Assembly: GCA_965248555.1 (NCBI GenBank)
Contig: CBDFJP010000002.1
Span: 2,134,093-2,198,092, forward strand
Source: Fimbriimonas sp.
GTDB taxonomy: Bacteria; Armatimonadota; Fimbriimonadia; Fimbriimonadales; Fimbriimonadaceae
Direction of reading: 5' to 3'
DNA length: 64,000 nt
Shown piece by piece: positions 480 to 62,060 of the stretch. A model generated the notes under the pieces. The model was given only the letters and a program-made list of their open reading frames with translations. It was not told the DNA's origin and did not search any database. Position numbers and translations under genes: made by a program. Positions within the stretch are counted from its first letter, which is position 1; each line of letters starts with the position of its first letter.

Positions 480-2162
480 GTGCGAAAGTGGTGGTGGTTG
501 GTTGCGGTTCTTGGTTTGGCAGTTGCCGGATGTAAGAACTTGGCCACCGAAGACTCGCCCGCGAGCAAGGCAGATCCCATCGAGCAGGCCAATAAGGTCG
601 ACGAATACGCCGCTTTTCGGGGCGAAAAGCCGCTGGAAGAAGACATCTGTTTCGAGGCTCAGCGCCAACGCATCCCGGTTCTGATGTTCCACGATCTGGT
701 GCCGGAGCGCACCAAGGAGACCCTATGGTACGACTGCACCATCGAGGAATTCGAGACGATTCTCCAGGCCATCGACATTGAGGGTTTCACCGTCATCTCC
801 TCGCAAGACCTGTACGAACACCTCACCACCGGCAAGCTCGTGCCGGAAAAGTCCATTGTGCTGACCTTTGATGACAACTATCAGAGCTTCTACGACTACG
901 CCTGGCCGCTACTACAGCAGCACAATTACCCAGCGACGATGTTCGTTCACACCGGCTTCGTGGGGAGCCTTCAGGGTCGCCCGAAAATGACCTGGGAAAC
1001 GTTGCAGGAGTTGGTGAAAGACAAGAATTTCACGGTTGGCGGACACACCATCAATCACTTCCTCGACCTCAAAGATCGAGATATTACCGAGCAAACGACC
1101 GAACTGGTCGAATCTAAAAAGGATATCGAAACCCACCTGGGCGTGAAAGTAGACTTCCTGGCCTACCCGAACGGAAGCAACGGCGAGGACACCCAGCTTC
1201 TCACCCGCCAGGCCGGCTACAAGATGGCCTACACCATCGTCAACTCCCCCGCCGAGGAGTCGCCGAACATCTTGGCGGTCGGCCGGTACGTCCACACGCG
1301 CTACCAAGAAGCCCTTCGGGATCGGGATGGGGCGATTTATGGTCAGCCCGCCACCATCTTCCGAACAGCTTGGAACAAGAGCTCGAAGATCAAGTATGTG
1401 AACGAGAAGTTCGCGGGGATTCCGCTGAAAATGACCTTCGGTGGAATGCCCTCGACCCATATGAGCCTCACCGGGCGCGAGATGGTTTCGACCTTTGTAG
1501 AGCGCGAACAGGCTCAGGCGGGGATCAATGGCGGCTTCTTCGCGATGGCGGCGATTCAGTCAACAGACAACGCGATGGTGGGGCCGCTGAAAACTCCGGA
1601 AATGACCGAAGTCGCGCCTGATCAGGCATCCGAGAGGTGGGACAAGATCAACGGTCGTCCGCTGGTTATTTGGAGCGGCGAGGAGTTCGCCATCCTGCCT
1701 TACATCCCGGCTCAGATGCATAAAGAGGAGCAATTCCAGTGGTTCATGAAGGGCTACACGGATACGTTTATGGCGGGAGTTTGGCTCGTTCACAACGGCG
1801 TTCCGCAGCCCAAGGAGTTCCAGAATGTTGTGGGGGCAAAGGACATTCAAGACCTGCGTCGTCGGGCGTTCATCGGAGTCACAAAAGACGGCCAGTTTGT
1901 CGCCGGAGCGGCGGTGACATCGGTTTCTAGCGAAAAACTCGCCGGGGCGATCGCCGAAGCCGGAGTGGAAGAAGCCGTTTTGATCGATTCAGGCTTTTCG
2001 ACTTCGCTGGTGTTTGATGGGAAGATTAAAGCTTCGGGACACTCCTCCGCAAAGGACCCCTCCCGACCGGTTCCCCACGCCATTACGATCAAAGGAGTGG
2101 TCGACGAGACGACTCAGGACGATGAGGATTTGGCGGTCGCTCAGCCGAAGCGTGGACGATAG
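480..2162 (+). CDS. lipoprotein with a polysaccharide deacetylase (NodB) domain and a C-terminal phosphodiester-glycosidase-like domain
   Basis: GTG start. Lipobox LAVAGC. NodB motifs VLMFHDL and [18 protein letters not shown]. The C-terminal half has NGGFF and [10 protein letters not shown], resembling DUF2233. Confidence 0.7.
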
Positions 2163-2178
2163 CTCGTACAATAGTGGT

Positions 2179-2421
2179 ATGAGAGTTCCTGAGGGCCTTG
2201 AGTCCGTCCTAAGCATTGACCCTGAGATCATGCACGGCGAGTTGTGTTTCAAGGGCACGCGAGTGCCGATTTTGGTGTTTCTTGACAATCTTCAGGAGGG
2301 AATGGGTCCCGAGGAGTTTGTCAGCATTTACACTTCTGTAAAGCGAAGTCAGGTTGACGCCGTTGTCGCTTGGCAAAAGAGTCGGCTACTTTCCGAGTCC
2401 GAGTTCAGTTTGGCGAGCTAG
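2179..2421 (+). CDS. DUF433-family protein (antitoxin-like)
   Basis: Internal ATG of ORF 2014-2421. The protein MRVPEGLESVLSIDPEIMHGELCFKGTRVPILVFLDNLQEG matches the DUF433 pattern. The upstream part of the tracked ORF overlaps the previous gene. Confidence 0.7.
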   Translation: MRVPEGLESVLSIDPEIMHGELCFKGTRVPILVFLDNLQEGMGPEEFVSIYTSVKRSQVDAVVAWQKSRLLSESEFSLAS

Positions 2422-2750
2422 TGAAAGTTCTGCTTGACGAAAATGTCTTTCCCGGCTTCCGCCGATGGCTGGTCGGTCACGAGGTCGACACTGTGTTACA
2501 CATGGGCTGGGATGGCCTCAAGAACGGGGCTCTGCTTGTCAGGGCTATTTCGAGCGGCTTCGAGGTTCTGATTTCGCTTGATCAGTCGATTCCAGACCAG
2601 AACTACCTCGCGAACAAGCCAATCGCGATCTTGACTCTTAAGCTAGATACTCGTACCAAGACCACCTACCAACGAGCGGTTGAACCGGTTCTGGAAGTTC
2701 TTGGAGAAATCAAATCGGGGGAGATCAGGACCGTCGTGATCCCAACGTGA
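2421..2750 (+). CDS. DUF5615 / PIN-like protein (toxin-like partner of DUF433)
   Basis: The GTG at 2421 shares one base with the TAG of the DUF433 gene. VKVLLDENVFPGFRRWL... is the typical DUF5615 N-terminus. Confidence 0.65.
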   Translation: MKVLLDENVFPGFRRWLVGHEVDTVLHMGWDGLKNGALLVRAISSGFEVLISLDQSIPDQNYLANKPIAILTLKLDTRTKTTYQRAVEPVLEVLGEIKSGEIRTVVIPT

Positions 2751-3160
2751 TCTTCCAAACCCTCGAACTTGTCCTTGCTCTCGATCAGCCACGCCGAATC
2801 CTGATCATCGAGGACAAGGTCTCGTTTGCCATTCGACTTCGCACATTTCTGGAGAAGAAGGGGCATACCGTCCATGCCTATGCCGGAGTTGAGAGGCAAG
2901 GCTCGCGGCTACTCGGGATTGAGAGCTATCACCCACTCGATCCAGACCTCATCGAGCCGAGTCACTACGAAGTCTGCTTCCTTGACCACTACTTTGCGGG
3001 CGACGATTTCAACGGCTCCACCTTCCTCGGGGTGCTGGGCAACCACCCGATAAGGGTCTGCGGGATGTCTTCGGTGGATTCAGCTAACGAATCAATGCGC
3101 CGTTGCGGCGCGATCACTTCGATCCGAAAAGACAAGCTCGATCAGCTTTTGACTTTATAG
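2747..3160 (+). CDS. stand-alone receiver (CheY-like) domain protein, tentative
   Basis: GTGA overlap with the previous stop. RILIIEDKVSF (acidic pair), EVCFLDHYF (candidate phospho-Asp) and VCGMSS are arranged as in REC domains. Confidence 0.4.
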   Translation: MIFQTLELVLALDQPRRILIIEDKVSFAIRLRTFLEKKGHTVHAYAGVERQGSRLLGIESYHPLDPDLIEPSHYEVCFLDHYFAGDDFNGSTFLGVLGNHPIRVCGMSSVDSANESMRRCGAITSIRKDKLDQLLTL

Positions 3161-3699
3161 CGCAGCTGAACCAGACCGCTGTCGAACGCCTCGGCGTCGA
3201 TCAGCTTGAGCGAAGTCTGCGGGAATCCGCCGGGGAACAGCGGCACCCCTTTGCCGAGCAGAACGGGGTGAACCGAGACCACGACTTCTTCGACCAACTT
3301 CCCTTCCAAATACCCCTTCACCAGCTCTCCGCCGCCCACTAGCCACGACCGCTTCACGCCCTGCTCCTTGAGCATCTTTTCGAGGTCGACGAGTGAGCCG
3401 TTGAAAAAAGCGGTATCTGGAGTCGTGATCTCTAGCTTTGCCGAGCGGGTTACGACCAGAGTGCGCTTGCCCGAATACGGCCATCGGCCCATTCCACGAA
3501 CCACGTCATACGTTCCCCGGCCCATGATGAGGGTGTCGACCGACTTGTAGAATTCGTCGAATCCGTAGTCGTTGTCGGTGAACTGCCACGACAAATCATC
3601 ATCCGGCCCGGCGATGTAGCCGTCAAGACTGGTCGCGATGAAAAGAGTCGTGAGCACGCCCTCAAGATACCCTGGCACAACACCTTCTGCCGGAGGCAT
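3142..3699 (-). CDS. dihydrofolate reductase family protein (RibD C-terminal domain type)
   Basis: Internal ATG at 3699. Motifs LFIATSLDGYIAGPDDDLSW, TLIMGRGTY and WLVGGGELV. The 3' end overlaps the convergent receiver gene by 19 nt. Confidence 0.75.
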   Translation of the reverse strand: MPPAEGVVPGYLEGVLTTLFIATSLDGYIAGPDDDLSWQFTDNDYGFDEFYKSVDTLIMGRGTYDVVRGMGRWPYSGKRTLVVTRSAKLEITTPDTAFFNGSLVDLEKMLKEQGVKRSWLVGGGELVKGYLEGKLVEEVVVSVHPVLLGKGVPLFPGGFPQTSLKLIDAEAFDSGLVQLRYKVKS

Positions 3700-3708
3700 A
3701 CTCAGATC

Positions 3709-4143
3709 GTGGGTAGCAATCTGGATCCGTACGACTGGCCTAGGAGAAGGAAACTTGCCACGATCTTGGTAGGCAATTCTGCTCCGATTTTGTTTTTTGC
3801 AAGTCGGCTCTCTGCAGCTCCTCACCCTTACGACTTCAACTACCTTCCCTTGGCCTCAATCTACTGCCTCACGATTTTTTTAGGGATCATGCTTGCATCG
3901 CGAGTGCGAATGTCCTATCTAGACAGGATCGGTGCCGGCGCCGTGATTTTTTCAATAGCCTATGGTGTGGGTGTTTTGTGTTCACGGTTGCCGTTCCTCT
4001 TCCCTACCCGCTACTCCTATCTGGCACTCGAACGAAATTTATGGTTTTTGGGCATGGTGTTTCAGTTCATCCCGATTGTGTCTACGCTCTTCTGGCTTCA
4101 AGCGAGGGTTAAGATGATCGATCCTGAAGGACAGCGAAGTTGA
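3709..4143 (+). CDS. hypothetical small membrane protein; start uncertain (ATG 3889 possible)
   Basis: ORF with 3-4 hydrophobic segments. No recognisable family. Confidence 0.35.
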   Translation: MGSNLDPYDWPRRRKLATILVGNSAPILFFASRLSAAPHPYDFNYLPLASIYCLTIFLGIMLASRVRMSYLDRIGAGAVIFSIAYGVGVLCSRLPFLFPTRYSYLALERNLWFLGMVFQFIPIVSTLFWLQARVKMIDPEGQRS

Positions 4144-5193: not shown

Positions 5194-6582
5194 ATGCTGA
5201 AAGTCGAGGGTCTTTGCAAGGCGTTCGGCTCCACAAGGGCCGTCGACCAGGTTTCGCTCATTGCGAAACCTGGTCGCGTTTTGGCCCTCATCGGCGAAAA
5301 CGGAAGCGGTAAAAGCACCCTCATGAAGCTGATTTCGGGGGAAACCGAACCAGATTCTGGCTTAGTGGAAATCAAGCCGAGCGAGGTACATCTCGTCCAC
5401 CAAGAACTCCTCCTCTGCCCCCACCTCACTGCCGCCGAGAACCTCTTTTTGGGCACAGCGAAGGGTGTCCGATTCTCGCCCAAAGCTCTCGAAGCCAAAG
5501 CCCAGGCAATCCTCGACGACCTCGGATTCCCAGAGGTCAAGGCGGGTCGAACAACGAGCGACCTCCCGATCTCCCAACGGCAAGTCATCGAAATCGCCCG
5601 CGCAATCATCAAAAACTGCCCAGTGATCCTCCTTGATGAGCCAACCAGTAGCCTCACCGAAGCCGACAAAGAGAAGTTCTACGGCCTCGTCCAAAGGCTC
5701 AAACAAGCGGACAAAACCGTTATCTTCATCTCCCACTTCCTCGAAGAAGTGAGGGCCGTCTCCGACGACTGCGTCATCCTTCGCGACGGCCAAGTTGTGG
5801 CTGCGGGGCTACTTGAGGACTTCTCAGATCAAGAAATTGTCCGGCACATGGTGGGCCGCGAAGTCACCGACCTCTTCCCCCGCTCGGAGCGAACGCCGGG
5901 TGAAGTCGTGCTCAACGTCCAGAACTTGACCGGCGAGGCCGGAAAGCCGTGCGAAGTCTCGTTCGAGCTCAAAGCCGGCGAAGTCCTCGGTCTCGCAGGC
6001 CTCAACGGAGCCGGAAAAACCGAACTCCTCCGAACCGTTTTTGGCCTCAGACGCACCCTTTCTGGCTCAAACGGCGGGCGAAAGCAGTGGAGTGATGGCG
6101 TTGGCTTCGTCAGCGAAGAGCGCAAGCTCGACGGAATCACCCTCCCCCTCAGCGTCGCCGAAAACGCCACCATGCCCACCCGCCACGGCTTCCTCAGCAA
6201 GCCAAAACAAGTCTCGGCAAAGGGTGCCGAATGGATTTCCAAGGTAGGAATCGCCGCCCAATCCCCCGATCAGCCCGTCGGAAGCCTCAGCGGTGGAAAC
6301 CAACAAAAAGTCGCCTTCGCCCGCCTCCTGCACGCAGACTGTAAACTGCTCATCTTGGATGAACCAACGCGCGGAGTAGATGTGGGAAGCAAAGCCGAAA
6401 TTTATCGCCTCATCGACGAGGCGGCAAAAGGCGGCGCGGCGGTGCTGATGGCAAGCTCCTACCTGCCAGAACTCCTCGGAGTTTGCGACCGGATCGGAGT
6501 CATGAACCGGGGCAGGCTGGTGAGCATCCACGATGCCAAAACAGCGACCTCCGAAGAGCTGGTTGCAGAGTGTGTCCGATGA
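5194..6582 (+). CDS. sugar ABC transporter ATP-binding protein (tandem ABC domains)
   Basis: Walker A GENGSGKST. Signatures LSGGNQQKV and ILLDEPT / LILDEPTRGVD. Confidence 0.9.
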   Translation: MLKVEGLCKAFGSTRAVDQVSLIAKPGRVLALIGENGSGKSTLMKLISGETEPDSGLVEIKPSEVHLVHQELLLCPHLTAAENLFLGTAKGVRFSPKALEAKAQAILDDLGFPEVKAGRTTSDLPISQRQVIEIARAIIKNCPVILLDEPTSSLTEADKEKFYGLVQRLKQADKTVIFISHFLEEVRAVSDDCVILRDGQVVAAGLLEDFSDQEIVRHMVGREVTDLFPRSERTPGEVVLNVQNLTGEAGKPCEVSFELKAGEVLGLAGLNGAGKTELLRTVFGLRRTLSGSNGGRKQWSDGVGFVSEERKLDGITLPLSVAENATMPTRHGFLSKPKQVSAKGAEWISKVGIAAQSPDQPVGSLSGGNQQKVAFARLLHADCKLLILDEPTRGVDVGSKAEIYRLIDEAAKGGAAVLMASSYLPELLGVCDRIGVMNRGRLVSIHDAKTATSEELVAECVR

Positions 6583-7529
6583 AAAAGAAGCCGAATCAGA
6601 TCATCGGAGTCCTCATCGCGTGGTTCCTCATCTACGCCTTTTTCGCCTTCCAAAAACCCCAAACCTTCCTGGGCCTAGCCAACTTTGAACTCCTCCTCCG
6701 CCAATCCACCATGATCGGAATCGGGGCCGTAGGAATGACCTACGTCATCGTCGCTGGCGGAATCGACCTCAGTGCCGGAAGCGTCATCGCCCTCTCCTCC
6801 GTCGTCGGAGCCATTACCTTTAATCGAACCCAAAACCCACTCATGGCGGTCTTCGCCTGCGCCCTCACCGGCTTTGCCTGCGGCGCGCTAAACGGAGTTC
6901 TCACCTCAAAGCTCAAAGCCGGCCCCTTCATCGTCACCCTCGGCTCCATGCTCGCAATCCGGGGAATCGCCAAGGGCCTCGCCGACGAGAAAACCGTCTC
7001 CACCGGCGGCGAAGGCTGGCTCTTCGAGTTCATCTCAAAAACCAAATCCTGGTTCGTCTTTCCCGTCGGAACCTGGATGTGGATATTCTTCCTCGGCCTC
7101 ATGGCCTGGGCCATGATCTACACCAACTTCGGGCGAAACGTGGTCGCCGTTGGCTCTAACGAGAGTGCTGCAAAGCTCTGCGGAATTCCCGTCGACCGAG
7201 TAAAAATAGGCGCCTACGCCGTCGCCGGATTCTTCTTCGGCCTCGCCGGACTGATGTCCCTTTCCCGAACATCCCTCGGTGATCCCACCTCCGCAACCGG
7301 CGACGAACTCCGCATCATCGCTGCCGTTGTCATCGGCGGAGCCTCCCTCTCGGGCGGCGAAGGAAGCGTCATCGGCGCCGCCATCGGCGCCCTCATCATG
7401 GCCACTATCAGCATGGGCGGAACCCAAATGGGCGTCGCCAACTGGAAGCAAGAAATCTTCACCGGCATCATCATCCTCGCCGCCGTAGCCATCGACCGCT
7501 GGCGCATCGCGCGTCGGCAAACCAACTGA
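6579..7529 (+). CDS. sugar ABC transporter permease (RbsC/branched-chain family)
   Basis: The ATG at 6579 overlaps the ATPase stop (ATGA). It is multi-TM, with motifs IVAGGIDLS and AAVVIGGASLSGGEGS. Confidence 0.9.
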   Translation: MKKKPNQIIGVLIAWFLIYAFFAFQKPQTFLGLANFELLLRQSTMIGIGAVGMTYVIVAGGIDLSAGSVIALSSVVGAITFNRTQNPLMAVFACALTGFACGALNGVLTSKLKAGPFIVTLGSMLAIRGIAKGLADEKTVSTGGEGWLFEFISKTKSWFVFPVGTWMWIFFLGLMAWAMIYTNFGRNVVAVGSNESAAKLCGIPVDRVKIGAYAVAGFFFGLAGLMSLSRTSLGDPTSATGDELRIIAAVVIGGASLSGGEGSVIGAAIGALIMATISMGGTQMGVANWKQEIFTGIIILAAVAIDRWRIARRQTN

Positions 7530-23175: not shown

Positions 23176-24685
<1,510 letters not shown>

Positions 24686-54905: not shown

Positions 54906-55259
54906 GGGGGCGTCAGGGTTCGACAGGACTGAAGCGACTCACCGTTGCGAGCCGTGGATTCTCGTTGGCCACGTAAAAAACGAGAAAAAAATAACTGCAA
55001 ACAACAACTTTGCATTCGCAGCCTAAGTAGCCGCGCATGAGCCAGTTCTGAGCCAGTAAGAACTGATCCTCGTGTAGCCAAATCTGGATCGCTAGGGCGA
55101 GCTTCTGTTCGTAGCAGACCCGGCTAAACAAAACCGAACTAAGGGTGCGCTAGGCGGTCTCGGCAGAGGCGCACTTCGAAAATCCAAACTGAGAAGACGC
55201 TCGTGGTAACGCTGGGAAGGCGGTTTTGGAAGGGAGTTCAATTCTCCCCGCCTCCACCA
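54906..55259 (+). ncRNA. ssrA: tmRNA (SsrA), tag ANNNFAFAA
   Basis: 5' GGGGGCGTCAGGGTTCGACAGG and 3' GGAGTTCAATTCTCCCCGCCTCCACCA. The acceptor stem has G3-U70. The tag reading frame gca aac aac aac ttt gca ttc gca gcc taa is at 54997-55026. Confidence 0.95.
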
Positions 55260-55556: not shown

Positions 55557-55572
55557 TGTGACCCAAGTCACA
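55557..55572 (+). promoter_or_regulatory. perfect CRP-type box TGTGA-cccaag-TCACA upstream of gene 55633
   Basis: Seen directly. Its centre at 55564.5 is about 42 nt upstream of the TSS implied by the -10-like TACAGT at 55595-55600. Confidence 0.6.
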
Positions 55573-55598
55573 TCCCCCCGCTAGACCCCGCCTGTACA

Positions 55599-55632
55599 GT
55601 GTTTCCAATACCCTCGCCGGTATAGGAAACAC
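55599..55632 (+). promoter_or_regulatory. 34-nt palindrome / stem-loop abutting the start codon of gene 55633
   Basis: gtgtttcc-a-atacc-ctcgcc-ggtat-a-ggaaacac forms 13 bp with one A-A mismatch. The 3' arm contains the AGGA Shine-Dalgarno-like element and ends at the base before the ATG. Confidence 0.5.
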
Positions 55633-56538
55633 ATGAAACTCAAACAGACAAAATCGTCCATCCCAGCAGTTGGCCTAGCTCTCGCTTTCGCTCTTTCCGC
55701 TGGAGTCCTCGCCCAGAACTCTGGTCAAGCCAAACCGAGCCAAGAGCAGGGCTACACCAGAGAAAATCCATTTGAATTCTCCGCTTTGGCGAGCAAGAAC
55801 ATTACGTTCAACGGTAAGCCTGCGATCCGAACCGACAGCCAGGACGCGGCGATGCAGAGCCAATTTGAAGTTGCCGACAAGGCATTCGCTAACGCAAAGA
55901 GTTCTGCCGCTCCACCCTACTTCAAGACGGTTTTTTACGCCGGCTACGGCGATAAGAACCAGCGTCCAAACCAAGCAGAGGACGTTGCCACTAACCACGG
56001 GCCCTGGCCAAGTTCGCCCACGATTAACCCTTCGTTCGAAGCCCAATCCGACTCAATATGGCCAAATTCGACAGTGATGGCCGTCAGGATGAACCTCACG
56101 GGATATCCGGTGTTTAACCCGGCAAAGGTGCGGGAAGCAAGTCTCAAGATCGACATATTCTTCGACCCGACTCGCGCACAGGGTTCTAGCGCCCTCTACG
56201 CATGGGATGATCAGACGAGTAATCCCATTCCCTTAATGCTACCAACGCAATGGAATTTGTTCCGGAACCGAGCCGCGTCCATGTTTGGTGGTCAAGCCCG
56301 ATGGATATCGGTAGTACTCGACTTGACACCCTCGAATCCGCTCCCCGTTGCCTATATGTATGACATTAATAGCTTTGGAAACCCCATTGCGAATCGCTGG
56401 ATGGGGCCCTTTACGAGCTTCCCAGCCGCATCTCGGAGCAGCCTTTTGCAGGCAGCGGCGAACGGCAACTTACAACTATATGCGCTCCCCCATCTCCCTG
56501 TCAGCCATGCAGAACTGGTCATCAAAGAATCGTTCTGA
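55633..56538 (+). CDS. secreted hypothetical protein
   Basis: Signal peptide MKLKQTKSSIPAVGLALAFALSAGVLAQ. No family recognised. Confidence 0.6.
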   Translation: MKLKQTKSSIPAVGLALAFALSAGVLAQNSGQAKPSQEQGYTRENPFEFSALASKNITFNGKPAIRTDSQDAAMQSQFEVADKAFANAKSSAAPPYFKTVFYAGYGDKNQRPNQAEDVATNHGPWPSSPTINPSFEAQSDSIWPNSTVMAVRMNLTGYPVFNPAKVREASLKIDIFFDPTRAQGSSALYAWDDQTSNPIPLMLPTQWNLFRNRAASMFGGQARWISVVLDLTPSNPLPVAYMYDINSFGNPIANRWMGPFTSFPAASRSSLLQAAANGNLQLYALPHLPVSHAELVIKESF

Positions 56539-57632: not shown

Positions 57633-57641
57633 CGATCGTAG

Positions 57642-60191
57642 GTACAATCGCGCCTATATACCTTCCTGCACACCGACCTCGAAGGCAGTAGTGCCGCGTG
57701 GGATATTGACCCCCAAAAGGCGAAGTCCGAAATCGCCCGCCTGTTCCAGCGCACCGAAACCGCAACCTTCAAGGCGGGCGGACGAGTCTACAAAAAGCGG
57801 GGCGATGGTCAAGCCGCCGTCTTCCAAAACAGCGACGATGCCCTCAACGCGATCCACGACCTTGCCAACGACCCAAACGCCGTCGAACTGCTCCCTCGGC
57901 TCCGACTCGTTCTCCACTGCGGCGAGGCCGAAGACCTCGGCGACGAGTTCTTAGGTGCCTGCCTCAATGTCGTTGGCCGACTGCTCGACGCCGCTCACCC
58001 CGGCCAAATCCTCGCCACCGACGAGTTTTTGCGTACGTGCAAAAATCCACCGGGTTCTGCTGAGCTCGATAAGCTAAGGCTCCGAGGCATCGCCTCGCCA
58101 ATTCGAGTCTTCCAACTCAATCTCGGCGGATCGCAAACGGAGTTCCCGCCCCTGAGGGGTTCCGCCCCGCCGACCAATCTTCCCCGGCTCCCCGCCGACT
58201 TCTTCGGGCGCAAGTCCGAACTCAACGACTTGACCAAGCTGATTATCGAAAAAAAGCTTCCCCTAGTCACCGTGCGCGGGTTCGGTGGAGTCGGCAAAAC
58301 CACCCTCGCCACTCAGTTCGCCCACAACGTATCAGACCACTTCCAAAACCGGATCTGGTGGGTCAGAGCCGATCACGCATTTTCCGCCGAACACCTCCTT
58401 GAGCAAATCTGTCACGCCCTCCGGTTCGAGCAAAACGCGACGGAACTCCTCGGTGCCCTCCCCGACATCTGCCAAAAACCAAGTCTCCTCGTCTTCGATT
58501 GCTTTGAATCAGCCGTAGAATTCGGAAGTGTAGTCACCGAAATACTGGAAGCCGCGCCCCAACTTCAGGCCGTCGTCACCAGCCGAAGACGGCTAGAACT
58601 CGACCAAGAATACGTCCTCGAACTTGGCGGAATCGTCAACACCACCAGCCTAAGACCCAACTGGGAGCCGGGCTTCTCCCTCTTCGAGCGCGCAGCCAAC
58701 CGAGCAAGTACTGGATTCAAACTCGGCGTGGCAGATCGCCCCCAGATCAAGTCCATCATCACCCGTGTCGACGCAATCCCCCTTGCGATCCAGCTCTGCG
58801 CGGGGAGGGTCAACCACATGACCCTCGCGCAAATCGATTCACAACTCGCCAAGAACCTTCTCGCAACCCTCAACCGAACCACCACAACCACCGACCGCCA
58901 CGGAAGCATGTCCACCGTCATTCAGGCATCCTTCGACCTGCTCAGCGAAGGCGAACGGGAACTCCTCGCAATGCTCGCGGCATTCCGCAAAGGCTTCGAT
59001 CTCGAAATTGCCAAACAAGTCACCCAGTACCGCAACTTCTTCGACACCTTCGGAGCACTCACAAACGCCTCCATGATCTCGCGGCAGACGGATGGCACGA
59101 CCCAACGCTTCCGCCTCCTCGACCCCGTCATCGAGTTCATCCGCGGGGTCGTCGCCCTCCTCCCAAGCCACCATTTTCAGCGGAGATTTTGCCATCACTA
59201 CGAGGCGTGGGCAATCAAAATGTCCAGTACAACCGACCGACAGGACTCGCTCACCAACGAAGTCGGAAACCTCGTCTCAGCCATCGAGTGGATGTGGTCA
59301 ACCCCAGAACTGACCCCGAACGACGAGTTCGTCAACCGAGTCCCACGGTTCCTCTACGACAACGGCTTCCTCTTCGAGTTCGACCTGCTTGTCGAAAGGA
59401 TTCTCGGATTCCACCACTTCACAGGCGTTGAGGCAAAAGCGGACGTGTACTCACTGGTCGCTGTTCGACACCGAACAGGCAAAAACTTGGAAGAAATGCG
59501 AACCGCGCTGAAACAGCGGTGGGAGTTGTTAAGGCCCCTACCGATTACAGGCCGAACCATTGATGCTCTTGGAGAAATCTGCGTCGCCGCCTGCGAGCAT
59601 CAGCACTCAGACTCAATAGACCTAGACCGTCTGTTGGATGAGTTTACGCTCACGCGCTCACAGTCGAGCGACGGCGAACTGCCCAGAAACTTGGATTGGG
59701 ATGCCGTTGAGCTGAACCTCCTTTTCAACTGCCGACGTACCGCCGACGCTCTCATGCTGGCCTCTGAGCTCATCACACGACTCAAAACACTGGAGCCTAA
59801 ATACTTCGGCTTTGCCTCCCGAATCACTGCCGAAATCTCACTACAAAGCGGCCAATTCCAAAACTCCGTCGCCATGTACACACGGCTCGCTCATAGCACC
59901 CAACCCCACTCACAGGCCGTCGGAATCTATGGCCTAGGGAAGTGTTCTGTAGCAATGGAAAAGTGGGAAGTTGCTACATTGTGCGTCGCGAGCCTCTACT
60001 CCTTCGAGCGCTCCGAAGCCCCCCGAGCCCATGCCTTCGCCGCAGACCTGAATAGGCTACTGCCACACTCTCCTAGTCGCGCCGAACCCATCCAAGACCC
60101 GGAAGATCGCGCAATGATCGTCTCCACAATTTTGGACTGTTTGCAGAATTGTGATCACGATCACACACAGGAATATACCAATCCCTTATAG
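57642..60191 (+). CDS. class III nucleotidyl cyclase domain + STAND/NB-ARC-like P-loop NTPase + helical-repeat protein; start codon unresolved, possibly frameshifted
   Basis: The open frame starts after TAG 57639-57641. Cyclase motifs FLHTDLEGSS, KKRGDGQAAVF, LRLVLHCGEAE and NVVGRLLDAAHPGQIL lie upstream of the first canonical start (TTG 58029, ORF-track start). Walker A is GFGGVGKTTLA and Walker B-like is LLVFDCFE. The C-terminal ~400 aa are helical-repeat-like. Confidence 0.7.
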   Translation, partial: VQSRLYTFLHTDLEGSSAAWDIDPQKAKSEIARLFQRTETATFKAGGRVYKKRGDGQAAVFQNSDDALNAIHDLANDPNAVELLPRLRLVLHCGEAEDLGDEFLGACLNVVGRLLDAAHPGQILATDEFLRTCKNPPGSAELDKLRLRGIASPIRVFQLNLGGSQTEFPPLRGSAPPTNLPRLPADFFGRKSELNDLTKLIIEKKLPLVTVRGFGGVGKTTLATQFAHNVSDHFQNRIWWVRADHAFSAEHLLEQICHALRFEQNATELLGALPDICQKPSLLVFDCFESAVEFGSVVTEILEAAPQLQAVVTSRRRLELDQEYVLELGGIVNTTSLRPNWEPGFSLFERAANRASTGFKLGVADRPQIKSIITRVDAIPLAIQLCAGRVNHMTLAQIDSQLAKNLLATLNRTTTTTDRHGSMSTVIQASFDLLSEGERELLAMLAAFRKGFDLEIAKQVTQYRNFFDTFGALTNASMISRQTDGTTQRFRLLDPVIEFIRGVVALLPSHHFQRRFCHHYEAWAIKMSSTTDRQDSLTNEVGNLVSAIEWMWSTPELTPNDEFVNRVPRFLYDNGFLFEFDLLVERILGFHHFTGVEAKADVYSLVAVRHRTGKNLEEMRTALKQRWELLRPLPITGRTIDALGEICVAACEHQHSDSIDLDRLLDEFTLTRSQSSDGELPRNLDWDAVELNLLFNCRRTADALMLASELITRLKTLEPKYFGFASRITAEISLQSGQFQNSVAMYTRLAHSTQPHSQAVGIYGLGKCSVAMEKWEVATLCVASLYSFERSEAPRAHAFAADLNRLLPHSPSRAEPIQDPEDRAMIVSTILDCLQNCDHDHTQEYTNPL
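60150..60165 (+). promoter_or_regulatory. second perfect CRP-type box TGTGA-tcacga-TCACA, inside the 3' end of the STAND gene
   Basis: Seen directly. The centre is at 60157.5 and a -10-like TATAGT lies at 60187-60192. The implied TSS near 60199 puts the box at -41.5 and coincides with the in-frame ATG at 60200. Confidence 0.55.
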
Positions 60192-60193
60192 TT

Positions 60194-61414
60194 ATGAGCA
60201 TGGGAAGAAACAATCCAATCAAACGCAAAGAGATCAAACCAGGACCACGGCCTCGCCGAATCGTGGAGCCCCTCGGAATCGGCACATTCGTCACTCTCGA
60301 TTACGGCGTTAACGTGCAGAGTCGCAACGAGTACGCCGTCATGCTACTCTCCGACAACTGGGCCTCCCTCCGGGACCTCCTCTACGATCCCCAGGCGTTC
60401 GTCGACGCCTGGAGACAGCGCTACACATGGACGCCAACGATGACATTCGAGTCGGGTACTTCCACGAAGTCAATGCCAGACTGGAAGCTAGTCGGACCAA
60501 TCACGATTCAAATCGAACCTCTCACTGTTCCCACTCCTTCAAACCTTCTCCTTCTCAGTGGGCTAACTTCGATGTATCCCGAGCTCAAAACTGTGATTGC
60601 TGCCGGCGCACTAGGTAATCAGGACTTCGCCGCTAAACTGACCAAAGCGCTTGTTCCCGCAGCTCCCTCTGCCCCTCGAGTCCGAAGGAGCAATCCAATG
60701 AACCTCGCACCAATGAGGGCTGCAAACCCAGTCACGCTCGATTCGTGCACGACCGAACCGCCGCCAAAGCCGCTCGCGTACATTGTCGAGTTTGCCGTGC
60801 TTACCCGGATCATGACAATCAAGTATGTTCCTCAGCCCGAAACTTCGCCACGCTGGTTCGAAGCCATCGGAACGTTCGAGCAGCAACGAGGCAATCCTTC
60901 TGCGAAGACCAAAGATGATTTCACTGGAATCAATTTGAACAATGTCGCAGGAACGGACCTCACGTTCATGCACTTCGACATCGCGTTCGACGAGCTAGTA
61001 CGGCCCCATACCCATGACGATGTATCAAGACGACGGGCAGATTTTGTCATGAGCTATCTTGAGAAGTTCGACTTCTTTATGGCGATGAAGCGCCCCTCTG
61101 ACGTAGCAACTCTCGCAACCCTCAAACCCGATGACAACAACCACGTTTTGGACCAACCGGGCTACACAAATCCGTATCCGATTACGAAGCTCAAAATGAT
61201 TGGTAATCAAAGAGGCCCCAGTGTCACCATTGACTCGGTTTACTCGCCTACAGACCCGCAACTTCAGAAAGTAGCACCTCCCTTCATTTGTGTTCTCGGC
61301 GTTACGGTGCCGGTCACGGATGCAAATGGAAATGTCATCTATGATTCGAACGGTAATGTGAATGAGTGGACAACTAATGGGGTGATCGTCAAGTCTTACC
61401 AGGCCCCCGCCTAA
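60194..61414 (+). CDS. orphan hypothetical protein (406 aa)
   Basis: ORF 2 nt after the STAND gene stop, with a basic N-terminus MSMGRNNPIKRKEIKPGPRPRR. There is no SD and no family recognised. The alternative ATG at 60200 may be a leaderless start. Confidence 0.6.
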   Translation: MSMGRNNPIKRKEIKPGPRPRRIVEPLGIGTFVTLDYGVNVQSRNEYAVMLLSDNWASLRDLLYDPQAFVDAWRQRYTWTPTMTFESGTSTKSMPDWKLVGPITIQIEPLTVPTPSNLLLLSGLTSMYPELKTVIAAGALGNQDFAAKLTKALVPAAPSAPRVRRSNPMNLAPMRAANPVTLDSCTTEPPPKPLAYIVEFAVLTRIMTIKYVPQPETSPRWFEAIGTFEQQRGNPSAKTKDDFTGINLNNVAGTDLTFMHFDIAFDELVRPHTHDDVSRRRADFVMSYLEKFDFFMAMKRPSDVATLATLKPDDNNHVLDQPGYTNPYPITKLKMIGNQRGPSVTIDSVYSPTDPQLQKVAPPFICVLGVTVPVTDANGNVIYDSNGNVNEWTTNGVIVKSYQAPA

Positions 61415-61418
61415 CCCA

Positions 61419-62060
61419 ATGGCTGAAAACGCACAGTACCTCGCCAAAGTTGATCTATTCGCGAGCCTCCCGGCGGAGCGATTAGATCAACTTGGCGCTC
61501 TCTGCACCCGGACCAAACTCGCCCCCCAAGAGATTCTCTTGCGTGAAGGCGACCCGGGAAGCACCCTCTATTTCATTATCGGCGGAGTCCTGAGGGTCGA
61601 GCGATACACCGCCCGAGGCGGTGTGGTCCACCTAGCCATGCGCAGTGCCGGGGACACCATCGGCGAACTCTCGATCCTCACCGACGGCTACCGCTCAGCC
61701 TACGTCGTCGCCCACACCTCCGCCAAACTCCTCGTCATGGAGCGCGCCGCGTTCCTAAAGTACGCTCTGACTGAACCCGAGGTCACCCTCGCCCTCCTCG
61801 CCCGCCTCGCCGAGCGCGTCAAAGAAGCCTCGGAACTGGTCGTCTCCCGATCCGCCGCTTCCGTGGAGGACCGAATCCTCCAACTCATGCTCTCCATGGT
61901 CGACTCTGAAGGCGAAATCACCCTCAAAGAGTCCCAAGCCGAACTCGCAAACCGAATCGGCTGTTCCCGAGAAGCCCTCAGCCGCGCCATCGCAAAACTC
62001 GTCGACGACCGCCGCCTAGACCGCCTCAGCCCAAAAACCTACCGATGGACTGCAGTCTAG
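61419..62060 (+). CDS. CRP/FNR-family cNMP-binding transcriptional regulator (CRP-like recognition helix)
   Basis: cNMP pocket IGELSILTDGYRSAYVVA. The HTH GCSREALSRAIAKL compares with E. coli CRP GCSRETVGRILKML. Confidence 0.85.
   Translation: MAENAQYLAKVDLFASLPAERLDQLGALCTRTKLAPQEILLREGDPGSTLYFIIGGVLRVERYTARGGVVHLAMRSAGDTIGELSILTDGYRSAYVVAHTSAKLLVMERAAFLKYALTEPEVTLALLARLAERVKEASELVVSRSAASVEDRILQLMLSMVDSEGEITLKESQAELANRIGCSREALSRAIAKLVDDRRLDRLSPKTYRWTAV

Follow-up and report, generated by a model that had tools for sequence, protein, structure and literature searches.

A conserved CRP-type operator at the 3' end of a cyclase-STAND gene and its predicted role as a class II-type promoter for a leaderless orphan-crp transcript in Fimbriimonas

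The window analysed here is a 64,000-nucleotide (nt) stretch of genomic DNA from Fimbriimonas sp. (GenBank assembly GCA_965248555.1, contig CBDFJP010000002.1, positions 2,134,093 to 2,198,092 of the forward strand), and our subject is a perfect CRP-type palindrome that lies in the last codons of a STAND-family gene, shortly before a gene of an uncharacterised family (hereafter the orphan gene) and the gene of a Crp/Fnr-family regulator. The cluster that contains these genes also carries a second box of the same form, and each box is followed by a hexamer resembling a -10 element. In the numbering of the window, the features are the following:

55557-55572, + strand: CRP-type operator, box 1, TGTGACCCAAGTCACA (half-sites TGTGA and TCACA around CCCAAG), upstream of the genes for the 301-residue (aa), CsgG-like and cyclase-STAND proteins
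55595-55600, + strand: -10-like hexamer TACAGT, 22 nt past box 1 and followed by a 32-nt leader to ATG 55633
55633-56538, + strand: 301-aa protein with a signal-peptide-like N-terminus, the first gene, 48% identical to its counterpart in the related locus L001
56559-57632, + strand: CsgG-like protein, the second gene, 58% identical to its L001 counterpart
57642..60191, + strand: class III nucleotidyl cyclase fused to an NB-ARC/STAND module and a helical repeat region; frame open from 57642
60150-60165, + strand: CRP-type operator, box 2, TGTGATCACGATCACA (half-sites TGTGA and TCACA around TCACGA), in the last codons of the cyclase-STAND gene
60187-60192, + strand: -10-like hexamer TATAGT, 21 nt past box 2, holding the TAG stop (60189-60191) of the cyclase-STAND gene
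60194..61414, + strand: orphan gene, 406 aa (from ATG 60194) or 404 aa (from ATG 60200), uncharacterised family
60199-60202, + strand: predicted transcription start (60199/60200) and ATG 60200, the proposed leaderless start codon, both placed from the geometry
61419..62060, + strand: Crp/Fnr-family regulator, 213 aa, with the Pfam domains cNMP_binding and HTH_Crp_2

The half-sites of box 2 are perfect, agreeing with TGTGA-N6-TCACA at 10/10 positions, and in the frame of the open reading frame (ORF) 58029..60191 the box is read as TGT GAT CAC GAT CAC A, encoding C-D-H-D-H-(T). An earlier interpretation made from the letters of this DNA (the sequence-only reading) had placed the box at 60150-60165, the TATAGT hexamer 21 nt beyond it at 60187-60192 and in-frame ATG codons at 60194 and 60200, and had likened this arrangement to the 22 nt and TACAGT that follow the first box; all of these coordinates and spacings are correct. 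Perfect sites of this form are rare: the window holds two against 0.04 expected, and none of 100 shuffles reached two. Both lie within 6.5 kb upstream of the Crp/Fnr gene and on the same strand, one-mismatch sites are absent from the 64-kb window, and two-mismatch sites occur at the background level (16 vs 20.3 expected). Box 1 has a counterpart in L001 (AGTGACCGAGATCACA, 5314-5329), where the spacing is also 22 nt and the hexamer also TACAGT. Two other families of operator were considered for box 2, and its sequence fits neither an NtcA-type (GTA-N8-TAC) nor an FNR-type (TTGAT-N4-ATCAA) site.

Related loci (given L numbers here) allowed the junction between the STAND and orphan genes to be compared across nine lineages, namely that of the window and eight others, with L001 and L004 counted as one. 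A CRP-type box is present at the junction in 9/9 lineages (perfect in seven, with one mismatch in one and two mismatches in one), and a -10-like hexamer lies 21 or 22 nt downstream of it in all nine. Each row below gives the lineage, the box, the box-to-hexamer spacing, the hexamer and the gap from hexamer to orphan ATG:

Window: TGTGATCACGATCACA; 21 nt; TATAGT; 7 nt (ATG 60200) or 1 nt (ATG 60194)
L001: TGTGATCCTGATCACA; 21 nt; TAAGAT; 75 nt
L004: TGTGATCCGGATCACA; 21 nt; TAAGAT; 75 nt
L020: TGTGACCAACATCACA; 22 nt; TAGGGT; 9 nt
L013: TGTGATGTAGATCACT (1 mismatch); 22 nt; TAGAAT; 6 nt
L005: AGTGATGTAACACACA (2 mismatches, degenerate); 21 nt; TAGCAT; 6 nt
L009: TGTGACCGAGATCACA; 21 nt; GATAAT; 9 nt
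L010: TGTGATCAATCTCACA; 22 nt; CACAAT; 9 nt
L021: TGTGAGGCAACTCACA; 21 nt; TAAATT; 6 nt
L022: TGTGACCAAAGTCACA; 21 nt; TAAGGT; 6 nt

All of the DNA retrieved contains six perfect boxes in distinct lineages and four more besides, every one of them inside the cassette, against a chance expectation of about 0.1-0.2 altogether. L006/L008 carry a different, non-cyclase STAND gene (BTAD type), no adjacent Crp gene and no box, and this joint absence is counted as co-occurrence support for the operator.

On this comparison, the conserved object is a DNA site and not a C-D-x-D-H peptide, because the half-sites stay fixed while the reading frame and the position of the stop codon shift among lineages. 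The TGA stop of the upstream gene is itself the TGA of TGTGA in L009, L010, L013, L020 and L022, the box begins 2 nt past the stop in L021, and it is intergenic in L005; in L009, L010, L020, L021 and L022 it occupies an intergenic spacer of 44-50 nt. Only the window and L001/L004 read TGT GAT as Cys-Asp, the ORF there continuing to a stop within or abutting the -10 hexamer, and even between these two the residues past the box are unrelated (TQEYTNPL in the window vs RFPKGPDVR in L001/L004) and the middle codon of the box is Pro in L001/L004. Across the lineages the 6-nt spacer varies freely around the fixed half-sites. When the window is aligned with L001/L004, 14/16 box columns are invariant vs roughly one third of the 90 upstream columns, and the box keeps TGT (0.30) and GAT (0.41), which are minority codons in this genome, as well as CAC. 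The location of the box inside coding sequence is, judged from the same junctions, a derived and lineage-specific overlap. The sequence-only reading had named persistence of the box and hexamer in orthologous loci as a check on its proposal, and both do persist.

These junctions bear directly on two explanations that would need no regulator. The palindrome might be a chance product of the codons for C-D-H-D-H, or reflect conservation of a peptide, C-D-x-D-H, that binds metal at the C-terminus of the STAND protein: the letters GATCACGATCAC form a tandem hexamer (a GATCAC duplication), and Cys, Asp and His are typical metal ligands. However, only 0.04 perfect sites are expected per window, and the box is retained where it is untranslated (L005 and L021) or holds a stop codon (the five loci with TGA in TGTGA), so that the junctions of the other lineages refute both forms of this explanation, to which we attach almost no probability. 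The palindrome could instead be a structural element, that is, the terminator hairpin of the STAND gene and not a protein-binding site. This would suit L020 (178-218) and L013 (963-995), where the palindrome that contains the box is longer and a U-rich run comes after it (in L020 an 11-bp stem and then a T-rich run, T3-G-T7) with fold z-scores of -1.6 and -2.7, respectively; in these two loci the box may double as an intrinsic terminator of the upstream gene, at most as a secondary function. In the window, by contrast, the hairpin is a weak one without a U-run (-4.7 kcal/mol, z = +0.17), on which grounds a terminator there was rejected, and the hairpins of L001, L009 and L010 are likewise not significant. 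Furthermore, the TGTGA and TCACA arms are invariant and only the loop varies, whereas a structural element would show compensatory changes; invariant arms around a variable loop are the signature of protein recognition and not of RNA pairing, and we consider a terminator very improbable as the explanation of the palindrome.

The regulator encoded 1.3 kb downstream is the one for which box 2 would be the operator. It consists of an N-terminal domain that binds cyclic nucleoside monophosphates (cNMP; PF00027, 1.2e-16) and a C-terminal winged helix-turn-helix (HTH; PF13545, 6.3e-8), and its closest solved relative is E. coli CAP (2e-16). In the CAP-DNA structures, R180, E181 and R185 are the residues that read TGTGA; they align with R184, E185 and R189 of the window protein, and the R-E-x-x-x-R motif that they form is invariant in the window, L001, L004 and L009. 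Invariant in the same four loci are E83, R92 and S93, which align with the residues of CAP that contact the phosphate of cyclic AMP (cAMP). The recognition residues match those of CAP, and the box is therefore the sequence that this Crp is expected to bind; together with the conservation of the site, we consider it very probable that box 2 is a functional Crp operator.

The position of the box relative to the hexamer is that of an activating site. With the hexamer at -12 to -7, a 16-bp core ending 21 nt before it spans -49 to -34 and is centred at -41.5 relative to the predicted start, so the centring proposed in the sequence-only reading is borne out with respect to the predicted hexamer, and the 21-22 nt spacing on which it depends is kept in all nine lineages. 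Hexamers with A at position 2, T at position 6 and at least four of six matches to TATAAT make up 0.3-0.8% of positions in the background, and TAnnnT makes up 0.26-0.42%; eight of the nine distinct junction hexamers are of the former kind, and the ninth, TAGGGT, is of the TAnnnT kind only. Allowing either criterion and two positions raises the rate to about 2% per lineage, and a hexamer at 21-22 nt in all nine would still have a joint probability of <1e-14; the spacing therefore cannot be a product of chance. The -35 position of the box 2 promoter reads CACACA, and no -35/-10 (sigma-70) pair was found on the + strand between 54800 and 62600; nor was any terminator-like site found on that strand anywhere in the same interval. 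From these features, box 2 and TATAGT are likely to constitute an activating class II-type promoter.

Several loci carry further boxes in positions of a different kind. L001 has a perfect box at 7366-7381 (TGTGACGGTCATCACA), between the CsgG-like and cyclase-STAND genes, which ends 8 nt before TAGAAT, itself 9 nt from the GTG start of the STAND gene; the site would extend over the -35/spacer region, a repressing location. This box has no counterpart in the window, where just 10 nt separate the CsgG-like and STAND genes. L013 (3918-3933) and L022 (6422-6437), in both of which crp has an upstream region to itself, have a perfect box before crp, ending 9-11 nt from the crp start, the right half-site of which overlaps a CACAAT located 7-9 nt before that start, a geometry that suggests negative autoregulation; L010 has a one-mismatch box over its crp start. 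The occurrence of activating and repressing positions within one regulon supports the view that the position of a box relative to the -10 hexamer is meaningful.

The start of the orphan gene appears to be set by the same hexamer. TATAGT ends 7 nt before ATG 60200, a gap that fits the leaderless pattern, whereas ATG 60194, at 1 nt, does not, and the gap between hexamer and orphan ATG is 6-9 nt in eight lineages (the window, L005, L009, L010, L013, L020, L021 and L022). This architecture extends beyond the cassette: in 12/52 non-overlapping ORFs of the window, the first ATG or GTG has a TAnnnT hexamer ending 5-8 nt upstream, with about 0.2 expected per position, and seven of these 12 have a gap of exactly 6 nt, which is the mode. 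Examples, with strand, are 35322(-) with TATAAT-6-ATG, 17966(-), 4189(+), 32891(+), 50506(-) and 19599(-)/19637(+). The Armatimonadota loci show the same hexamer peak at 6-9 nt (10/55 ORFs). Leaderless-type starts look routine in these genomes, accounting for about a quarter of the window genes, and leaderless mRNAs appear to be a major expression mode in this one. Shine-Dalgarno (SD)-like motifs precede only 5/47 long window ORFs, which is the background rate (0.099), even though the 3' end of the window 16S rRNA is CACCUCCUUA, carrying CCUCC. It had been noted earlier that no SD precedes either orphan ATG; this is true, yet it has no evidential weight, because SD motifs are at background throughout the window and their absence is uninformative for any single gene. 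The N-terminal extension from the ATG to the conserved G-x-G-(T/A)-x-V-x-L-D-Y core of the orphan protein varies in length between lineages, and its first ~20 residues are predicted to be disordered in an AlphaFold2 (AF2) model (predicted local distance difference test, pLDDT, 46-51); a variable, disordered extension of this kind fits a start codon pinned by the promoter and transcription start. On balance we lean slightly towards a leaderless start at ATG 60200, as the sequence-only reading had proposed: the 7-nt gap, the agreement of eight lineages and the window-wide excess favour it, although such a start is not universal in the family, since L001/L004 are leadered.

Two further explanations accept that Crp binds the box, or that the promoter is real, but differ as to the consequence. 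The operator could be negative, with bound Crp acting as a roadblock that limits read-through into orphan-crp and with the hexamer playing no part as a promoter element. The same regulon does contain boxes at repressing positions (those of L001, L013 and L022 described above), and the lack of a terminator between the STAND and orphan genes in the window makes read-through available to block. A roadblock would nevertheless leave unexpected the hexamer at exactly 21-22 nt in nine lineages, given a background of 0.3-0.8% per position, as well as the orphan start codon that tracks this hexamer at 6-9 nt in eight of them; and in the loci whose box sits between genes, in a spacer of 44-50 nt, a promoter is the natural interpretation. 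We consider a purely negative operator unlikely. Equally unlikely, in our assessment, is that the promoter is real but its mRNA functionally leadered, with translation beginning at GTG 60263 and with 60194-60262 serving as a 5' untranslated region. This explanation would accommodate the L001/L004 orthologues, whose first residue corresponds in the alignment to residue 26-28 of the window protein and whose 75-nt leader contains AAGGAG, as well as the disorder predicted for window residues 1-20. Yet N-terminal extensions are found in the homologues of L005, L009, L010, L020 and L021, whose ATGs all lie 6-9 nt past the hexamer, the L-D-Y motif of L005 and L009 is displaced by no more than a few residues from its place in the window protein (residues 35-37), and GTG 60263 has neither an SD before it nor a -10 hexamer at leaderless distance. 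The 75-nt leader itself holds, at L001 9924-10004 and L004 636-716, a 26-codon ORF whose TGA overlaps the orphan ATG (ATGA); this ORF is probably not a conserved coding sequence and was rejected as such, as two compensating 1-nt indels between L001 and L004 change its frame in between.

The gene in which box 2 lies was described in the sequence-only reading as a STAND gene, which is correct but incomplete, as an N-terminal nucleotidyl cyclase domain is also present. The NB-ARC match is clear (Pfam, 9e-12), the first 130 codons of the frame from 57642 are homologous to the N-termini of the orthologues, and a profile of these N-termini matches class III cyclases of solved structure, with Ma1120 at 7e-22 and with Rv1900c and Rv1264 as further matches. 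The catalytic residues are invariant, comprising two metal-binding Asp, a substrate Lys and the transition-state residues Asn and Arg (in the motifs F-x-x-T-D, K-x-x-G-D-G and N-x-x-x-R), and the Pfam family Guanylate_cyc (PF00211) gives a significant match to the copies of L005, L009, L010 and L021, whereas that to the window copy is not significant. On these profile matches, the open frame encodes a nucleotidyl cyclase domain fused to a STAND NTPase.

We hypothesize that box 2 is a Crp operator forming part of a class II-type promoter inside the 3' end of the cyclase-STAND gene, and that this promoter drives a leaderless, autoregulated orphan-crp mRNA; we place the probability of this reading as a whole at roughly 0.68. 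It draws on the sequence throughout, that is, on the site, its conservation, its spacing, the recognition residues of the regulator and the leaderless-type architecture. The promoter would lie within the final 14 codons of the cyclase-STAND gene, with its operator centred at about -41.5/-42.5 and with no usable -35 element. Crp loaded with a cyclic nucleotide would recruit RNA polymerase at box 2, and transcription would begin with the A of ATG 60200 (60199/60200). The resulting bicistronic mRNA, with no leader or almost none, would encode both the orphan protein and Crp, which amounts to positive autoregulation. In this scheme, binding, activation as opposed to repression, the transcription start, the identity of the nucleotide and the ATG used are the elements that we infer. 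Since only 4 nt, devoid of any promoter signal, separate the orphan stop from crp, an autoregulated orphan-crp unit is the natural reading of the gene order, and the separately inducible unit envisaged in the earlier interpretation gains support from this gap, from the conserved box and hexamer and from the CAP-like residues. The simplest candidate for the cyclic nucleotide is cAMP from the cyclase domain of the STAND protein encoded next door, and box 1 (55557) would drive the genes for the 301-aa, CsgG-like and cyclase-STAND proteins, closing a feed-forward loop. That the signal is cAMP from the neighbouring cyclase seems to us an even wager, one that is weakened in the window by the cyclase start codon discussed below.

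Several observations weigh against this reading or parts of it. The cyclase frame has no ATG, GTG or TTG from 57642 until TTG 58029, so that cAMP production from this copy is uncertain: the frame opens directly after a TAG (57639-57641), 10 nt past the CsgG-like stop, and the window has GTA at the position of the GTG start of the L001 cyclase-STAND gene. This could reflect a non-canonical start, a recent loss of the start (leaving a cyclase-less STAND protein) or a sequencing error. The junction hexamers are only consensus-like, TAGGGT matching TATAAT at 3/6 positions and CACAAT and GATAAT lacking the first T. In L001/L004 the orphan gene starts 24-27 codons further in than in the window, behind a leader of 75 nt that contains an SD (AAGGAG), and an in-frame GTG of the window (60263) aligns with this start, which makes 60263 a possible start in the window as well. 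The 9-nt gap of three lineages (L009, L010 and L020) is long for a strictly leaderless mRNA and may mean a 2-3-nt leader. Finally, read-through from the STAND gene, which is 2 nt away and followed by no terminator, surely reaches the orphan gene, and the internal promoter may supply only part of its expression.

The predicted promoter resembles the class II CAP/CRP promoters of E. coli (galP1, melR and the synthetic CC(-41.5); Busby & Ebright) in having TGTGA-N6-TCACA 21 nt from the -10 element, centred at -41.5 and overlapping or replacing the -35 element, and the window Crp shares the R-E-x-x-x-R recognition helix of E. coli CAP. Unlike those promoters, it lies inside or abutting the 3' end of the preceding gene, and its predicted transcript would begin with the initiation codon; the window Crp also appears to be local, with sites within the 64 kb only in its own cluster, the organism is far removed from the Proteobacteria, and activation is a prediction. 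Closer in placement are the intragenic CRP sites of M. tuberculosis and M. bovis BCG, 35 of which are reported to serve downstream promoters (PMC4117774), and the sequences within Rv0250c that are needed for expression of Rv0249c (PMC4477654). In M. tuberculosis, as in the window, a CRP site in upstream coding sequence serves the next gene, and many mRNAs there are leaderless; the mycobacterial sites, however, belong to a global regulon mapped by chromatin immunoprecipitation sequencing (ChIP-seq), whereas the window circuit is a dedicated one deduced from sequence. Leaderless mRNAs are documented in Actinobacteria and Deinococcus (PMC3898074, PMC4633059, PMC4007540), and Planctomycetes and other phyla are reported to show a low-SD bias towards leaderless or RPS1-dependent initiation (PMC5397173), with which the pattern of the window agrees. 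The starts predicted in the window resemble the leaderless genes of Actinobacteria and Deinococcus in having a -10 hexamer 6-8 nt before ATG or GTG; an SD is missing from both, a feature that does not discriminate in this genome.

With regard to the cyclase, the M. tuberculosis proteins Rv0386, Rv1358 and Rv2488c are class III cyclases fused to STAND/NB-ARC-TPR modules, and the window protein is built like them, with an N-terminal class III cyclase that has its catalytic residues, followed by NB-ARC and helical repeats. The mycobacterial proteins have a C-terminal LuxR-type HTH of their own, whereas in the window the DNA-binding output would fall to a separate protein, the Crp from two genes downstream, and the gene between specifies an uncharacterised protein of ~400 aa. 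As in the Pycsar and CBASS systems, a cyclase and a protein with a cNMP-binding domain are encoded together, but the receptor in the window is a transcription factor and not a toxic effector. Membership in Pycsar/CBASS was considered and rejected, as no PADLOC family fits the cyclase-STAND or orphan protein: the PADLOC search gave a match only on the cNMP-binding domain of Crp, none for the orphan and a marginal one (0.0037) for the cyclase-STAND protein. A survey of NTP-dependent conflict systems mentions, in a general way, AP-ATPase systems with links to cNMP cyclases and Crp-like factors (PMC7159879); we found no description of the cyclase-STAND, orphan and Crp trio in that survey.

Taken by itself, the promoter is ordinary, since CRP sites of class II, promoters inside genes and mRNAs that lack a leader are all well known, although the comparative support for it is unusually good for a promoter of this type. 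Its value lies in the setting, which is one of poorly studied, uncultured lineages: the nine lineages form a natural alignment of operator, -10 hexamer and start codon that fixes the recognition sequence of a non-proteobacterial Crp, and both activating and repressing geometries are visible in one small regulon. Synonymous changes (TGT to TGC, CAC to CAT) also make the promoter testable with the STAND protein unaltered. Less ordinary is the cassette, which combines a sensor-cyclase, a dedicated Crp and a middle protein from a family that is predicted to be well folded and has no known relative. We tentatively propose, as a possibility that is rather less probable than not, that the cyclase-STAND, orphan and Crp genes form a self-contained, transcription-wired signalling cassette present in at least two distantly related bacterial groups, in which a ligand-activated STAND protein would make cAMP, the dedicated Crp would switch on a leaderless orphan-crp mRNA from -41.5 operators, and -10-overlapping operators would add negative feedback in some lineages. 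If so, STAND proteins would have an inducible output of a new type, perhaps serving in the response to stress or phages, in which the cyclic nucleotide acts on a transcription factor instead of a toxic effector.

L001/L002, L009, L010 and L022 share the gene order cyclase-STAND, orphan, Crp. L004 and L020 are short contigs that carry the 3' end of the upstream gene followed by orphan and Crp genes, the tail of the upstream protein in L020 resembling that of the window STAND. L005 and L021 have the cyclase-STAND and orphan genes; L005 has no adjacent Crp gene, and the L021 contig ends 208 nt past the orphan. L011 is the L008 contig repeated and L012 is identical in sequence to L005, so neither is a new locus; the source names of L005-L012 are all Armatimonadota (Fimbriimonadaceae, Chthonomonas). 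A metagenome scan returned one locus, L005, and L010 was the sole new locus among the three from a scan with another alignment (A6), whereas a scan of the genome collection with the close orphan alignment (A1) gave no match, not even to the source genome.

The orphan family is rare, with two close homologue clusters and 68 representative clusters among 1.84 billion proteins, and in every locus with an identifiable upstream gene it directly follows a STAND NTPase gene. None of 34 members has a Pfam match, and no sequence match was found in PDB. The AF2 model is confident (pLDDT 86.3; predicted template modelling score, pTM, 0.88), and a Foldseek search with it found no match in PDB or BFVD (best E 0.16-0.27, TM <=0.12). 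Residues A201, T204, Y211, T244, H260, D262, C366, K400 and Y402 are invariant.

A transfer-messenger RNA (tmRNA) gene (54906-55259, tag ANNNFAFAA) lies directly before the cassette, 300 nt upstream of box 1. Genes for tmRNA are common integration sites; no repeat of the tmRNA 3' end occurs within the window, so that no att pair was found and no island boundary could be shown. Elsewhere in the window, a complete 16S rRNA gene (23176-24685) is followed by 39 kb that contain no 23S, 5S or spacer tRNA genes, indicating an unlinked rRNA operon. Pfam searches with ten further proteins of the window revealed no domain specific to a taxon. L013 differs from the other loci in having two tandem orphan paralogues (1019-3763) before its Crp gene, and its upstream gene fragment gave no BLAST match to the window STAND; the second paralogue (2546-3763) begins with a twin-arginine-like signal (MSNGKHTRRTFLG...) and is preceded by a GAGGAG SD, suggesting that some members of the orphan family may be exported.

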